Shown: one piece after another, positions 40,305-46,923 of the stretch
Position numbering within the stretch: the first letter of the stretch is position 1
Layout: each line of letters starts with the position of its first letter
IMG/VR virus record: IMGVR_UViG_3300021197_001081
Span: 1-56,070 of that record
Direction: 5' to 3' (one strand)
Source: a virus
Taxonomy: Duplodnaviria > Caudoviricetes
Length of the DNA: 56,070 nt
The notes under the pieces: model-generated
The model's database searches: none
What the model was told of the DNA's origin: nothing
Seen by the model: only the letters and a program-made list of their open reading frames with translations
Program-made: the position numbers and the translations under genes

Positions 40305-40337
40305 TTTATTTAATTTAAGTTATGTGACTTATGTCGT

Positions 40338-40377
40338 GAATAGGGAGGAATCGAACCTCCCAAGCACCATGCTATTC
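40338..40377 (-). ncRNA. 40-nt tRNA-like element (acceptor stem plus T-arm, no anticodon arm), copy 1
   Basis: GAAUAG-CAUGGUGCUUG-GGAGG-UUCGAUU-CCUCC-CUAUUC-A. Confidence 0.65.
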
Positions 40378-40382
40378 TGTAA

Positions 40383-41552: not shown

Positions 41553-41707
41553 TTTGATTTTTTGTGTTTTTTGTTAGACTTCCAGTAATTTTTCTTTGCC
41601 CATTTCTTCTTCATCTTAGATGTCTTGCATCGCTTTGAAGTTCCACAGCTCGTTAACGTGGGTGTAGCTATAAGCATACACATCACAAACATTAAAATTT
41701 TCTTCAT
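41540..41707 (-). CDS. Small basic lipoprotein (55 aa)
   Basis: MKKILMFVMCMLIATPTLTS-CGTSKR: signal peptide with lipobox LTSC. Not in the ORF track. Confidence 0.65.
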   Translation of the reverse strand: MKKILMFVMCMLIATPTLTSCGTSKRCKTSKMKKKWAKKNYWKSNKKHKKSKWGR

Positions 41708-41724
41708 AATTGTAGTTTTTTAGA

Positions 41725-41838
41725 TTAATCTTGGTCTTTGGTTTCTACGTAGAACTCTGCATGTTCATGGCAGTCTCCACATAAAGAATCACTAAGGAAT
41801 GATGGGGATGCCCCACAACAGTTACTGTACTTATTCAT
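41725..41838 (-). CDS. Zinc-finger-like microprotein (37 aa)
   Basis: MNKYSNCCGA...LCGDCHEHAEF. Not in the ORF track. Confidence 0.65.
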   Translation of the reverse strand: MNKYSNCCGASPSFLSDSLCGDCHEHAEFYVETKDQD

Positions 41839-41875
41839 AAATTATAGTTTTAAATATCTGCATTATTGCATTGAT

Positions 41876-41915
41876 ACTGGAGAAGGAATCGAACCTTACT
41901 TACAACCATTCCAGT
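41876..41915 (-). ncRNA. 40-nt tRNA-like element (acceptor stem plus T-arm, no anticodon arm), copy 2
   Basis: ACUGGA-AUGGUUGUAAG-UAAGG-UUCGAUU-CCUUC-UCCAGU-A. Confidence 0.6.
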
Positions 41916-41932
41916 TAGTCGGACAGCGTGTG

Positions 41933-42427
41933 CTAAAGCTTGTAGCTATAGTTCTCTGCTACCCATGTGCATAAAGTCTCTCTATTGCCATCTGACAGCT
42001 CCATGAACAGGTTAAATACATTAGCAGTTCCACCATGACCATTTCTCTTGTTGAGGTTGTTCCATTTGGCTTCTATGTGATTAGCCAGTGACGTACCCTC
42101 ACCAAAAGCTTTTTGTATCCATCCAGCTGGGAAGTTATACGCAAAGTACATGAAGTTAGTAATTTGGTCAGCTGCAGCATCTCTTTTCTCTTCTGCTTCA
42201 TCATACTCGTCATACCATTCTGTCCATACGTACAGCTCCTGCTCATGTGCGTCATCCAGTATGAACTCATCAGAGCATTCAGCGTAGGCACATTTGTAGT
42301 TCTCTTTCAACCAATCCACCAAGCTGGATTCATCTTTAATGGTTTCGTCATTGTGAAGAAGAAATCCTTCATACATTCCTTCTCCAGTGATAATACATGT
42401 TCTTGGTTCTTTGTTTAAATTACTCAT
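41933..42427 (-). CDS. Acidic hypothetical early protein
   Basis: 164 aa; ATG is 22 nt downstream of a predicted hammerhead cut site. Confidence 0.7.
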   Translation of the reverse strand: MSNLNKEPRTCIITGEGMYEGFLLHNDETIKDESSLVDWLKENYKCAYAECSDEFILDDAHEQELYVWTEWYDEYDEAEEKRDAAADQITNFMYFAYNFPAGWIQKAFGEGTSLANHIEAKWNNLNKRNGHGGTANVFNLFMELSDGNRETLCTWVAENYSYKL

Positions 42428-42443
42428 AATTGTAGTTTTTAAT

Positions 42444-42493
42444 GATTAAGACGCTTCACAGCGTTTCGACTATTGAAGTCTCGTCAGTTAATC
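42444..42493 (-). ncRNA. Type I hammerhead ribozyme A
   Basis: GAUUAA-CUGACGA-GACU-UCAAU-AGUC-GAAA-CGCU-GUGA-AGCG-UC^UUAAUC: full conserved core and three perfect stems. Confidence 0.95.
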
Positions 42494-42820
42494 TATGTGC
42501 TGCTCCAGTGCCGACAGCACGTCATACATCATGTGTCTTTGTGTAGCATCATGAGTTACGTTCTTTTCGATTAGCTTGTACATAAGAAGTCCTACGTCTT
42601 CAGCATTCAAGCTATCTACTTGGTCTTGCCAGTCTGAGTTTGTAAGTTCAACTGAAGACATTAATTGTTTGATTTGTGGTTCTTTGAGCTGTGATACAGC
42701 ACTGTCAAGGTTATCAATACTTGCTTGACATGAGTCATGGTCAGGATTCCATTCTCCACTTTGTAACATTTCAAAATCTTTGATTGCTGTTACTACTTTA
42801 CTAATTACTTTGTAATTCAT
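42488..42820 (-). CDS. Hypothetical early protein
   Basis: 110 aa; its last codon and stop (GAU UAA) form stem I of hammerhead A. Confidence 0.7.
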   Translation of the reverse strand: MNYKVISKVVTAIKDFEMLQSGEWNPDHDSCQASIDNLDSAVSQLKEPQIKQLMSSVELTNSDWQDQVDSLNAEDVGLLMYKLIEKNVTHDATQRHMMYDVLSALEQHID

Positions 42821-42837
42821 TGTGATTTAATTTAAGA

Positions 42838-43077
42838 TTAATATAATTGTGATTTTTCTATTTGTTTTACCTCTCTTGCTGGTAATTCACTGGTGTACTC
42901 TTCGTACTTGTCAAATGTCTTTTGACACAGATTATCGTACTTGGTATACATCTTTTCATTACCATCTCCATCAGCGTCATTACGCATGTCATTGGCAGTA
43001 TTATACTTGATTAGCCAGTAAACTGCTTTGTTTACTTTTGCTTGGTGTTTCTTGTTTAATGCTATTATTTTACTCAT
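42838..43077 (-). CDS. Hypothetical early protein
   Basis: 79 aa. Confidence 0.7.
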   Translation of the reverse strand: MSKIIALNKKHQAKVNKAVYWLIKYNTANDMRNDADGDGNEKMYTKYDNLCQKTFDKYEEYTSELPAREVKQIEKSQLY

Positions 43078-43079
43078 AA

Positions 43080-43220
43080 TTAAAATGGATTAGATGTTAC
43101 GAAATAGCTTAGTGCTATTACATTCTTTTTTACTTGTTCTAATTCGTACAGCTTTTGAGCTGTCTTGATTAATGCACAGTCAATACGTACATACTTGATT
43201 ACTGTTTTTGATTTACTCAT
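43080..43220 (-). CDS. Small hypothetical early protein (46 aa)
   Basis: MSKSKTVIKYVRIDCALIK...SNPF*; ATG is 22 nt after the hammerhead B cut. Not in the ORF track. Confidence 0.6.
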   Translation of the reverse strand: MSKSKTVIKYVRIDCALIKTAQKLYELEQVKKNVIALSYFVTSNPF

Positions 43221-43236
43221 TGTAGTTGAATTTTAA

Positions 43237-43286
43237 AGTTAAGACGCCTCTCGGCGTTTCGTCCTATATGGACTCATCAGTTAACT
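43237..43286 (-). ncRNA. Type I hammerhead ribozyme B
   Basis: AGUUAA-CUGAUGA-GUCC-AUAUA-GGAC-GAAA-CGCC-GAGA-GGCG-UC^UUAACU: canonical core, GNRA-capped stem III. Confidence 0.95.
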
Positions 43287-43623
43287 ATGCATCGTGAACA
43301 CAGCCAACTGCTGAGTTCTGCCACTCGAAGTACAACCCATGCTTCTCCAGTGTTTCTTGTAGTTTCTTGCTGCCCCAGTACATTTCAGTATCGTAGTAAT
43401 CTAACCACTCTTCTGCATTATACTCTTCTGCTTTTATCCAAAAGTATCCTCTGTAGTCTTGGTAACCTCGCTGGTTTTGATACCATATGTCTATTGGGCA
43501 ACCAAGTTTTTTTAACTCGATAAACGCTTTGATTGATGCTGGAGTCATGTGGCTGATTTCTTCAGCAGAAAACTCATTGTTAAACATTTTTTTTGTGTAC
43601 TTCACTGTTGTTGAATTTGACAT
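43285..43623 (-). CDS. First early gene, hypothetical protein
   Basis: 112 aa; UAG stop overlaps stem I of hammerhead B. Confidence 0.7.
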   Translation of the reverse strand: MSNSTTVKYTKKMFNNEFSAEEISHMTPASIKAFIELKKLGCPIDIWYQNQRGYQDYRGYFWIKAEEYNAEEWLDYYDTEMYWGSKKLQETLEKHGLYFEWQNSAVGCVHDA

Positions 43624-43646
43624 TTTAATTAAATTTAAAGATTAGT

Positions 43647-44030
43647 TATCGGTACGAGTATTGCTCTCGCTGGTCTGTCAATCAGATACCGATATTAGTG
43701 TCGTAAATTTCACTCTCAAGACTCGCACATTAACTCCATCCACAGATGGTTAAAGAGATGTCATTCGCTCTACAGAATCCTCAATTAAGGGATGCCAATA
43801 TTTTATCCTTGAAATCATTTTTACTTTATGTAAGACCTATGAACACCTTGGTGCTAACTACTTCGCTTGATAGATATGGATAGAGAGATAATCATAACAG
43901 AATCGTTAAATGATTGATTATCAGCAGTCTGCGTGAAGCACAGTTAAAGCAACACTTTAGATAATGTGTCGTAACTGCTTGATTCTCAGTAGTTTAGGTC
44001 AGAATGTCAATGAACGTGAGGTTTCCCCCC
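43647..44030 (-). ncRNA. Candidate ~400-nt structured leader/ncRNA of the early transcript
   Basis: Nested helices GACCUA/UAGGUC, AACUACU/AGUAGUU, CAGUUA/UAACUG, GAUAAUCA/UGAUUAUC, CCAUC/GAUGG and UAUCGGUA/UACCGAUA; no long ORF. Confidence 0.6.
44004..44029 (-). promoter_or_regulatory. boxB/boxA-like antitermination site
   Basis: GGGG-GAAA-CCUC GNRA hairpin followed by GUUCAUUGACAU, immediately after the promoter. Confidence 0.45.
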
Positions 44031-44255: not shown

Positions 44256-44486
44256 GTCCTTCTCCTTTTTTAATGTGTGCAGAAAATGTGCAACAATGGT
44301 TTTTATGTTTGCAGTATGAAAAACTATAATTGGTCAAACCTATCGGTACAGCAGAAAATAAATGTCAAACAATATGCAATCAACTTGTATGGAAAAAGAT
44401 GGCACACATCTAAACCAAACTTTTGCAGCAAACTGAACTACCTTGAAATCTACAGCATACTACATAGTTAGTCCTTCTCCTTTTTT
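44256..44486 (+). repeat. 16-bp direct repeat GTCCTTCTCCTTTTTT
   Basis: Exact copies at 44256-44271 and 44471-44486. Confidence 0.8.
44316..44471 (+). CDS. Small hypothetical protein (51 aa), probably leaderless
   Basis: MKNYNWSNLSVQQK...; TATGTTTG box at 44304-44311 only 4 nt before the ATG. Confidence 0.5.
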   Translation: MKNYNWSNLSVQQKINVKQYAINLYGKRWHTSKPNFCSKLNYLEIYSILHS

Positions 44487-45306: not shown

Positions 45307-46923
45307 ATGAGCAATTATATTCCAAAGAACCTTGAGTTCGATCAGCCTGGTCGAAATAAATTAATAAAAGGGATTACAAAAATTTCTAAAGCAGTAAAGA
45401 GTACGTTAGGCCCACGCGGAAAAACAGTTCTAATAGAATCGCCTGAACATATCGGAGGTATGACAATAACAAAAGACGGTGTAACTGTAGCTAACTCTAT
45501 TTTTTTGGATGATCCTGTAGAGAACCTTGCGGTTCAAATGTTAAAAGATGCAGCACGTAGAACTGCTAACTCAGCTGGAGATGGAACGACTACAGCAATT
45601 GTATTAACCGAGGCTATTATAAAAGCTGGTGAAAGACTTCTAACAGAAAAAAATAATATAACTGAGGTTGTAAAATCAATAAACAGATTCAGTAAAATTA
45701 TTCTTAAAAAATTAAAAAAGAACTCACGAAAAATTACCAAGGCAAGGCTATTAGATGTTGCAACAATTTCAGCAAACAACGATAAGTCTTTAGGAAAAAT
45801 AATTGCTGATGCTTATAATAAAGTTGGAAAGAACGGTATTGTAACTGTAGAGCGATCTCAAAACCATGAGACATATGCCACAGTTACTAATGGAATAAAA
45901 GTTGATAGAGGTTATACTTCTAATTTATTTATCACTAATCAAAAAAACGATGAAGCAATCTTAGAAGATGTTTTAGTTTTAGTTTGTGACCAGGAGATAA
46001 GTAATATTCTACAAATAGAAAATGTTTTAAAACCAATCATTCAACAAAATAAAAAACTTCTCATCATTGGTCCATGCTCAGTCAATGTTGTGAATACCCT
46101 GGCGGCAAACGTAGTGCGTAACGGACTTAAGCTTTGTAATATTATACCACCACAATTTGGATATAAACAACACGAGCTTATGCAGGACATTGCGTTGTCG
46201 GTAGGGGCTAAATACTTTTCAGAAAAAACTGGAGATGATTTAAGTCTGTTAAGCATGGAAGATCTTGGTCATGCTGATAAAATTATTTCAGGAAAGAGTC
46301 AAACGGTTATCATTAAAAATAATCAAATGACTGAAGAGATAGAAAAAAGAATAACTGATCTTAAGGAACAACAAGAAAACACAGAAATAGTTTCAGATAA
46401 AGAGTTTATAAACGAGCGTATTGCAAGTTTATCAGGATCAATAGGAGCTATTTATGTTGGGGGTAATTCTGATATAGAGCAAAAAGAAAAGTATGACAGA
46501 GTAGAAGATGCTGTGTGTGCTGTTCGTAGCGCTTTGCAAGAGGGTATTGTAAGAGGTGGAGGACTTGCTTTATTTTATTCAAGAGAAGAACTTAGTTATA
46601 TTTCTAAGAAGACAGTTAATGATGACGAAAGTACAGCTATAGATATTCTAATGGAATCTTTATGTGCGCCATTAAGACAAATATTACAAAACGCTGGATT
46701 AAATCTTGATGAATACTACAATGTATCTACAACAAGTGATTCATGGATTCTTCAACAATTAGACGAGTACAATGTAAAGACTGAAGTAAAAGGAGATTTT
46801 TTTAAGATGGGTGTTATAGATCCTTTAAAAGTAACTAAGACTGCTTTTGAAAATTCAGTTAGTGTAGCAACAACTATTCTAACAACAAACGCAATAATAA
46901 CTCACGCGCGAGTAAAAGAATAA
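45307..46923 (+). CDS. groEL: Phage-encoded chaperonin GroEL (Cpn60)
   Basis: TLGPRG, ITKDGVTVA, AGDGTTTA, DRVEDAVCA and GVIDPLKVT motifs; no GGM tail. Confidence 0.97.
   Translation: MSNYIPKNLEFDQPGRNKLIKGITKISKAVKSTLGPRGKTVLIESPEHIGGMTITKDGVTVANSIFLDDPVENLAVQMLKDAARRTANSAGDGTTTAIVLTEAIIKAGERLLTEKNNITEVVKSINRFSKIILKKLKKNSRKITKARLLDVATISANNDKSLGKIIADAYNKVGKNGIVTVERSQNHETYATVTNGIKVDRGYTSNLFITNQKNDEAILEDVLVLVCDQEISNILQIENVLKPIIQQNKKLLIIGPCSVNVVNTLAANVVRNGLKLCNIIPPQFGYKQHELMQDIALSVGAKYFSEKTGDDLSLLSMEDLGHADKIISGKSQTVIIKNNQMTEEIEKRITDLKEQQENTEIVSDKEFINERIASLSGSIGAIYVGGNSDIEQKEKYDRVEDAVCAVRSALQEGIVRGGGLALFYSREELSYISKKTVNDDESTAIDILMESLCAPLRQILQNAGLNLDEYYNVSTTSDSWILQQLDEYNVKTEVKGDFFKMGVIDPLKVTKTAFENSVSVATTILTTNAIITHARVKE

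Follow-up and report, generated by a model that had tools for sequence, protein, structure and literature searches.

A type I hammerhead ribozyme at the junction of two small genes in a probable Bacteroidota phage, and its family of stop-ribozyme-leader-start junctions

Hammerhead A, a 50-nucleotide (nt) element on the minus strand of an IMG/VR virus record, is by sequence a real and complete type I hammerhead ribozyme for which self-cleavage is predicted. The record, referred to as the window, was analyzed over its full 56,070 bases and is estimated to be 88% complete; the element occupies 42444-42493, between a gene encoding 110 amino acids (aa) and one encoding 164 aa. We consider hammerhead A to be probably a working-type ribozyme at the junction of two small early genes, where it would act as self-made punctuation between cistrons in a phage of probably Flavobacteriia-type Bacteroidota. 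The motif itself, its covariation, its position between a stop and a start codon, its strand and the family to which it belongs carry this reading. A sister copy, hammerhead B, is found in the same operon, and the two were used together to build a covariance model (R1).

Hammerhead A and its sister copy

The elements of hammerhead A and the position of hammerhead B are as follows, with the basis of each assignment.
42444-42493, minus strand: hammerhead A, type I (stem I open), 50 nt (sequence; full-length alignment to Rfam RF00163; R1 score of 72.6 bits)
42488-42493, minus strand: stem I 5' arm GAUUAA, which is codon GAU plus stop UAA at the end of the 110-aa gene (sequence and open reading frame, ORF)
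42481-42487, minus strand: catalytic core box CUGACGA, C3 to A9 (sequence)
42468-42480, minus strand: stem II, GACU/AGUC, 4 base pairs (bp) with the 5-nt loop UCAAU (sequence and pair comparison with B)
42465-42467, minus strand: core residues G12, A13 and A14 (sequence and RF00163 alignment)
42451-42464, minus strand: stem III, ACGCU/AGCGU, comprising A15.1-U16.1 plus 4 bp, with the GNRA loop GUGA (sequence and pair comparison)
42449-42450, minus strand: predicted cleavage site between C17 (42450) and U (42449), GUC (hammerhead consensus laid on the Rfam alignment)
42444-42449, minus strand: stem I 3' arm UUAAUC, the initial 6 nt of the downstream leader (sequence)
42428-42449, minus strand: predicted leader of the 3' product, 22 nt, A/U-rich and predicted to be unstructured (sequence and fold)
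42494, minus strand: conserved A directly 5' of stem I (A in 179/190 family copies)
42443, minus strand: conserved A directly 3' of stem I (A in 170/190 family copies)
43237-43286, minus strand: hammerhead B, sister copy in the same operon, 50 nt (RF00163 score of 35.9 bits, above the gathering score)

Three helices surround the core, with G10.1-C11.1 closing stem II, and all 15 of their pairs are standard, 6 of them in stem I, with A 42464 pairing with U 42451 to form A15.1-U16.1 and the H position (C 42450) placed directly before stem I. Hammerhead A aligns end to end with the Rfam model RF00163 (Hammerhead_1, model positions 1-45) with a score of 25.8 bits and an E value of 0.0027 in a 3-kb search or 0.051 over the whole window. 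It shares with that family the CUGANGA...GAAA core, the A15.1-U16.1 pair, the GUC cut site and the open stem I, and differs from it, together with its own relatives, in a 6-bp stem I containing UUAA, a 4-bp stem II, a 5-nt loop resembling UNRAU and the flanking A residues. RAGATH-1 (RF03152) gives a weak alignment that includes the hairpin upstream, and hammerhead A is no member of that family (20.4 bits against a gathering score of 56.3, E value of 3.7). A loose scan for CTGANGA...GAAA...TH was uninformative, returning 29 overlapping matches, a number equaled in 2 of 100 shuffles.

An earlier sequence-only reading of this DNA had given the letters of hammerhead A, and these match the minus strand of 42444-42493 exactly; its observation that the 5' arm of stem I is the last codon plus stop of the upstream gene is borne out by ORF 42488-42820, which ends in HID followed by the stop (GAT TAA). 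It had further proposed that A and B are of equal length with covaried stems. In an ungapped alignment of the two 50-nt elements, 5 of the 15 pairs differ on both sides, all compensatory; stems I and II hold two each and stem III the fifth. The two hammerheads are 793 nt apart with three small genes between them. Hammerhead B is predicted to be cut after 43243, so that its 3' product starts at 43242 and the next ATG lies at 43220; both copies therefore have the 22-nt distance from cut to start that had been noted (42449 to the ATG at 42427 for A).

The motif AACUACA had also been pointed out, and it is present in both leaders. It does not serve as a mark of ribozyme leaders, since it is found as well before the ribozyme-less gene start at 41705, with the variant AACTATA before 41836, and it thus marks the start regions of this gene cluster generally.

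Upstream of hammerhead B, at 43275-43310 (minus strand), the end of the upstream 112-aa gene can pair over ~13 bp with the 5' arm of B's stem I and the CUG of its core, and the 116-nt context of B has a minimum free energy of -33.9 kcal/mol (z-score of -3.63), with none of 200 shuffles folding equally well. This helix would be opened by ribosomes translating the 112-aa gene, so that cleavage of B might be coupled to translation. The upstream pairing is not evident where B sits behind other upstream genes.

A family of hammerheads between stop and start codons

R1 gave 26 strong matches in contigs encoding relatives of the two flanking proteins, nine of which lie within 6.2 kb of one relative, L025. 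A pattern scan of IMG/VR for a hammerhead core whose stem I contains UUAA and whose cut site reads UC returned at least 120 stretches, and R1 applied to the scanned loci found 130 and then 60 further full-length copies among the matches listed. The 216 full-length copies were reduced to 192 distinct ones by removing those identical in ribozyme plus 40 nt, so the family numbers at least 192 copies in IMG/VR phage contigs. Family counts refer to the matches listed, with some loci being second fetches of one contig, and five weak R1 matches (13.9-14.3 bits, 36-42 nt) were excluded before all counts. Counts of leaders and stop codons cover 188 copies, four with less than 150 nt downstream having been left out, and statistics on stems II and III cover the 163 of 192 copies that were parsed by script, the other 29 being unparsed. 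The predominance of UUAA in stem I and of C17 is partly built in by the scan pattern. Flanks, leader and ORFs were no part of it, so that the survey of cut-to-ATG distances was blind to the downstream sequence.

Covariation across the family is strong and, with the 216 full-length relatives, shows that the element is no chance match. Among 117 distinct sequences, 99.4% of the cells at paired positions are standard pairs compared with 75.5% after shuffling, and two-sided changes number 382 compared with 82 in shuffles, none of 500 shuffles being equally high; controls in which the partner was slid along the sequence gave 22-42% paired. These figures lean high, as related sequences were used and were aligned by fitting them to the model, though the contrast is still large. 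The CTGANGA core is kept in 190/192 copies, with C (181 copies) or A (11 copies) at the cut site. In 144/163 copies stem II is 4 bp long, and in 130/163 its loop has 5 nt, mostly of the form U-N-R-A-U, with UCAAU, as in hammerhead A, the commonest (23 copies). Conservation of the A residues flanking stem I on both sides suggests that the functional unit is slightly larger than 50 nt. At threshold, the Rfam hammerhead models called none of the 53 R1 matches in 14 loci.

Applied to 185,579 species genomes, the scan pattern matched 26 stretches. Seven of these belong to isolate genomes by their record titles, five being Bacteroidota (three Mucilaginibacter, one each of Paraflavitalea and Riemerella) and two Gammaproteobacteria, and the other 19 come from metagenome bins, with many short phage-like contigs among them. 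Dense arrays were seen in three contigs from metagenome-assembled genomes labeled 'Aliivibrio' or 'Gammaproteobacteria', with 8 pattern matches in 5.8 kb (L157), 6 in 2.7 kb (L161) and 5 in 2.9 kb (L170), or about one hammerhead per 400-700 nt; these contigs are probably phage fragments, which would make their bin labels no guide to hosts. The cultured Cellulophaga phage phi19:3 carries one unannotated copy (KC821608.1, 21769-21817, minus strand; L147 4003-4051) between gp051 and gp050, with its stop TAA inside stem I and a 34-nt leader. A DNA search with 41900-43700 against 50,697 phage records gave no match, and a 96-nt query against the phage records found only the phi19:3 copy and weak A/T-rich matches. 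In two further loci (L052 near 8563 and L061 near 5467) a hammerhead lies directly behind a fragment resembling the 3' end of another copy (TATCTTAACC), which suggests tandem or partly deleted copies.

The position of the family members is as regular as their sequence. An upstream ORF of at least 30 codons stops between -9 and +12 of the hammerhead start in 166/188 copies. The commonest stops are TAA within stem I, as in A (63 copies), and TGA within the CUGA box (31 copies), and 25 copies, B being an example, have a TAG that spans the 5' edge from -2 or -1. On the cassette reading given below, the 5' edge of the ribozyme would also close reading frames, by the UAA of stem I, by the UGA that the CUGA box contains, or by UAG when the preceding letters are UA, and a newly joined gene would end within ~10 nt in almost any frame. 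In all 49 loci with at least two copies, every copy is on a single strand, with a median spacing between copies of 582 nt and a median size of 78 aa for the gene behind a copy. A and B show the arrangement that characterizes phage clusters, namely several coding-strand hammerheads flanking single genes or short blocks. The 60-64-nt gaps between genes are filled wholly by ribozyme plus leader, so the ribozyme must be co-transcribed with the upstream gene.

Between the cut and the first ORF-opening ATG lies a median of 23 nt (interquartile range 21-26), and 145/188 copies fall between 18 and 26 nt. The leaders are 54% A and 8% G, and a Shine-Dalgarno-like 4-mer occurs in 42/185. The 30S ribosomal subunit covers a stretch of messenger RNA (mRNA) 5' of the start codon. 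The 18-26-nt band would fit this coverage, and it would be expected whether or not the 5' end itself matters. A small group of copies has leaders of 32-46 nt, owing to an extra hairpin or a longer leader. At L025 1689-1714 and 5506-5533, an extra small GNRA hairpin (GGCGAAAGCC) lies between stem I and leader and brings the leader to 32-34 nt, and copies at L078 carry another conserved insert of ~22 nt, giving leaders of 44-45 nt.

The sequence-only reading had taken the constant spacing further, as a sign of selection on the processed 5' untranslated region (UTR). In its strict form, cleavage would occur and selection would act on an exact processed length of 22 nt for translation of the downstream gene. 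We regard this version as quite improbable. Both window copies do have 22 nt although their leaders need gaps to align, and 22 is the commonest value, at 28/188; the histogram puts the chance that two random copies have leaders of equal length at ~8%. Against it, the other 160 of 188 copies have other lengths, close relatives carry A and B orthologues with leaders of 21 or 22 nt, and copies with an extra hairpin or longer leader lie well outside, as does the phi19:3 copy. What stands is a non-random placement between stop and start, in the form of a band rather than a fixed length. Junctions that hold no ribozyme at all keep TTAATC and an A-rich leader 21-23 nt before the ATG, so the spacing cannot be used as the sign of a selected processed end.

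A further alternative is that pairs of hammerheads release gene-length RNAs whose ends pair again through like stems I, giving ligated circular or re-joined mRNAs. The near invariance of stem I across the nine L025 copies would suit it, and the idea was raised in PMC3088659, where no such products were detected. Yet consecutive copies are fully compatible in 50/73 cases compared with 61% of random pairs between loci, which is no excess; B's 3' arm matches A's 5' arm at only 5/6 positions; and L027 and L033 each have three different stems I. No back-joined contig is listed for the RNA runs, a weak point since these consist of contigs only. Together these make circularization a very slight prospect.

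Folding, predicted cleavage and precedents

Thermodynamic folding places stems II and III in nascent chains of 43-44 nt and leaves the predicted 3' product unstructured (-0.4 kcal/mol). From these predictions and the arrangement above, we infer cleavage in vivo, the fate of the products and the benefit to the phage along the following lines. A polycistronic minus-strand message would carry hammerhead A. With all 50 nt of it synthesized, stems II and III would fold ahead of stem I, and the RNA would then cleave itself after C 42450. On the upstream side, the 110-aa cistron would retain its stop codon inside stem I and would end in the compact fold of stems II and III with a 2',3'-cyclic phosphate, and the downstream 164-aa cistron would begin with a 5'-hydroxyl and a 22-nt A-rich, unstructured leader that has no Shine-Dalgarno sequence. 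The weak 6-bp A/U stem I would dissociate after the cut. In this way the ribozyme would separate cistrons independently of the host and could uncouple their stability and translation.

Several observations weigh against activity or need. Nearest-neighbor energies predict that the full 50 nt of A prefer a rod-like alternative (-12.5 kcal/mol) over the hammerhead (-9.7 kcal/mol), with stems II and III having a pair probability of only 0.01, whereas for B the hammerhead fold is the minimum. To be active, hammerhead A would consequently need the right order of folding or the help of tertiary contacts, which is the chief doubt that the computations raise. Inspection by eye found no recognized loop-loop or pseudoknot contact in A, the conserved form of loop II and the flanking A residues at most hinting at one, and minimal hammerheads are slow at cellular Mg2+ (PMC3088659). 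The RF00163 score of A lies below that model's gathering score of 34. Four marine metatranscriptome runs carry the region as contigs, and no cleavage was seen in them, though the bridging of both cut sites by these contigs is uninformative either way; contigs of 40-67 kb in the RNA runs make DNA carry-over likely. Lastly, the module is dispensable, as an 87%-complete relative with an 84%-identical 164-aa gene has none and has the same leader.

Taken at their strongest, these points would describe an element that does not cleave in the cell and that acts as structure alone, such as a 3' stabilizer of the upstream message or an insulator, or that is a decaying relic. The alternative fold, more stable by 2.8 kcal/mol, the lack of an identified tertiary contact and the sub-threshold Rfam score all suit such an element. 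Every core position of A nevertheless fits the consensus, conservation of an unpaired core is unneeded for a mere hairpin, and the nascent chain is predicted to form stems II and III first. We accordingly give purely structural explanations little credence.

In phage T7, RNase III cuts between early genes to give single-gene mRNAs with a protective 3' hairpin. T7 is thus similar in its intercistronic cutting but uses a host enzyme and double-stranded sites, whereas hammerhead A would cut itself and would leave 5'-hydroxyl and cyclic-phosphate ends. The reading of hammerhead A as self-made punctuation of an early transcript draws on this analogy and on a proposal for prophage hammerhead clusters made in PMC3088659.

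In that study (Perreault et al. 2011, PMC3088659), clusters of hammerheads on either side of single prophage genes were reported to cleave in vitro and in E. coli, with three tandem sets cleaved in vitro, and long phage transcripts were proposed to be processed to single-gene mRNAs. The likeness to the present family lies in several close ribozymes between genes of varying identity in phage DNA, and the difference in origin, the assayed tandem sets having come from prophages of Clostridium scindens, Azorhizobium and Agrobacterium. The portion of the text consulted does not describe a stop in stem I or the CUGA box, an 18-26-nt leader band, collapsed junctions or cassette exchange, and members of the present family may be among its supplementary sequences. 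The same source describes HHphage of the haloviruses HF1 and HF2, a hammerhead that precedes a start codon by a short, fixed 13 nt within an early polycistronic unit and for which a mapped 5' end lies at most 3 nt from the cut; it has a variant core, belongs to high-salt archaeal viruses and lies at a transcript start rather than between cistrons.

In a 2026 paper on fungal RNA viruses, type I hammerheads located in intergenic UTRs were connected with translation initiation. These are likewise type I hammerheads that fill a small intergenic UTR, with a longer helix III, and one cuts 7 nt before the next ORF; they differ in belonging to eukaryotic RNA viruses, with use resembling that of an internal ribosome entry site, as against a DNA phage with bacterial translation. 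The role of self-cleaving ribozymes in bacteria and phages was described as still largely undefined in a 2019 review (PMC6765202). The literature searched contained no mention of hammerheads with Cellulophaga or Flavobacterium phages and no discussion of phage hammerheads with Bacteroidetes.

Intercistronic processing by clustered phage hammerheads is therefore a proposal already made in 2011. Relative to the portions of published text consulted, a Bacteroidota-leaning subfamily this large and uniform, missed at Rfam thresholds, appears to be new, as do the built-in stops, the leader band, the junctions with and without ribozyme and the cassette joints. The phi19:3 copy resides in a cultured phage with a cultured host, which makes direct testing feasible, and the natural junctions of both kinds provide ready comparisons for the effect of cleavage on mRNA stability and translation in hosts that do not rely on Shine-Dalgarno sequences. 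For annotation, elements of 50-60 nt explain many puzzling 60-nt gaps between small phage genes.

Ribozyme-less junctions, gene cassettes and operon context

Two junctions of the same operon lack a ribozyme.
42818-42841, minus strand: ribozyme-less junction, with the stop of a 79-aa gene inside TATTAATC, a 15-nt leader and the ATG of the 110-aa gene
41705-41728, minus strand: ribozyme-less junction behind a 37-aa gene, with GAT TAA TC, the AACTACA leader and an ATG

Orthologous junctions with and without a ribozyme collapse exactly to GATTAATC or TATTAATC with the same leader. The 37-aa gene, which ends in GAT TAA TC in the window, ends in GAT TAA in its L025 orthologue, followed by a full hammerhead and then TTAATC, so the difference between the two is an exact collapse or opening of the two UUAA arms, compatible with gain and loss alike. 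In four related loci (L006-L009) the 79-aa gene ends in TATTAATC and runs directly into hammerhead A's leader before the orthologous 164-aa gene; these loci are without the block made up of leader, 110-aa gene and hammerhead A, which has TTAATC bounding both of its sides. As the leader spacing is the same at ribozyme-less junctions, the leader and its length belong to the junction, ribozyme or not. Across 114 loci a scan for collapsed sites found 6 on the hammerhead strand compared with 1 on the other, two of which are convincing; collapse is documented for the window's clade and not for the whole family.

Copy number and neighbors vary widely among close relatives. Whole records hold two copies in the window, nine in one relative (85% complete), none in another (87% complete) and none in the closest GenBank record. 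Hammerhead B with its downstream 46-aa gene is found behind three unrelated upstream genes (in the window, L010 and L014), and hammerhead A with its downstream gene behind two different ones. Conversely, L025 has homologues of the 112-aa, 110-aa and 37-aa genes followed by hammerheads and then by different downstream genes. Exchange thus occurs on both sides of the ribozyme, with homology breaking at either ribozyme edge. The ribozymes themselves are also mixed: L004 and L014-L017 have a chimeric hammerhead B with A's stem III, and in L005 the same two genes enclose a hammerhead whose stems II and III are entirely unlike. In three of the four RNA-library runs a contig shares only 42449-42488 with the window; in one of these (X4), for which both flanks are listed, the loose ends read as a covaried stem I with foreign flanks. 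In a low-depth contig (X3), one hybrid hammerhead links the 112-aa gene to A's leader and three genes are skipped, which is weak evidence with only 27 letters on one side of the joint.

These exchanges bear on whether the element benefits the phage. The hammerhead could be mainly a selfish or hitch-hiking repeat, spread or homogenized by recombination at gene ends containing TTAA, in which case any cleavage would bring the phage no benefit and the fixed spacing would be a by-product of landing at a stop codon before a pre-existing leader. The counts of zero, two and nine copies, the exact collapse of orthologous junctions, the hybrid and replaced stems, and the shared segment with unrelated flanks in X4 are all as such a repeat would leave them. 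DNA-level spread alone, however, requires neither a core kept in almost every copy nor pairs upheld by covariation, the copies are always in the sense orientation and between ORFs, no transposase or other mobility gene is associated with them, and collapsed sites are rare outside the window's clade. On balance we think it unlikely that the element is chiefly selfish. The sequence-only reading had favored selection on the processed 5' UTR over a selfish insertion; the hammerhead, its covariation and its constrained position hold up, the argument from spacing was over-read, and the variable copy numbers, optional junctions and chimeric copies leave room for a selfish insertion.

The hammerhead is thus optional, being gained, lost and exchanged by recombination in its conserved parts, and marks the joints of shuffled gene cassettes. 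We tentatively propose, as a possibility short of even odds, that in Bacteroidota-type phages it has a dual role, as an RNA cut site between cistrons and as a DNA homology patch for swapping small accessory genes, the patch consisting of the conserved stem I, the core and the flanking A residues. Each gene cassette would then carry its own processing signal and start region, and the whole would amount to a cassette system free of integrase. In T4-type phages, promoter early stem-loop (PeSL) cassettes in hyperplastic regions place short conserved intergenic elements at the edges of small accessory genes, where they coincide with recombination joints. PeSL elements differ in consisting of promoters and terminator-like hairpins, and they contain no ribozymes.

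Small genes surround the ribozymes and head a minus-strand gene run downstream of a large non-coding region. For the five nearest to the ribozymes, searches of Pfam and PHROGs returned no family.
42488-42820, minus strand: upstream 110-aa gene, no family match, in the cassette absent from L006-L009
41933-42427, minus strand: downstream 164-aa gene, no family match

A Flavobacteriia-type Bacteroidota host is plausible from protein similarity, as the closest relative of the 803-aa primase-like protein of the window is that of an uncultured podovirus (65.5% identity), followed by those of Flavobacterium, Nonlabens, Cellulophaga and Polaribacter phages. A scan for sigma-70 promoters and terminators found nothing beyond shuffles, with Bacteroidota promoters outside the tool's coverage. 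A predicted 'terminator' at 43244-43257 was rejected, as it is stem III of hammerhead B.

Other elements were observed in the surrounding sequence. ARAGORN found no transfer RNA (tRNA). Two intergenic elements between cistrons of the hammerhead operon, 40330-40378 and 41872-41922 (both minus strand), share GGTTCGATTCC, a hairpin resembling the T arm of a tRNA. In each, a 6-bp acceptor-like stem surrounds this hairpin, and the linker 'AUGGU' stands where a tRNA has its D and anticodon arms. Both elements could serve as tRNA-like processing signals; ARAGORN made no tRNA call for them, the Rfam tRNA model gave 16.9 bits only, and their fold z-scores are unremarkable. A stretch of ~215 bp at 44256-44470, between 16-nt direct repeats (GTCCTTCTCCTTTTTT), matched nothing in the phage collection. 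Contigs of runs X1 and X4 skip this stretch, and in three runs it overlaps contigs that are ~93% identical and 10-15 times deeper than the phage; it may be a small mobile insert or a sequence common to a far more abundant entity. Divergent from the early operon, a 538-aa ORF at 45307-46923 (plus strand) has, by eye only, the look of a GroEL-type chaperonin.

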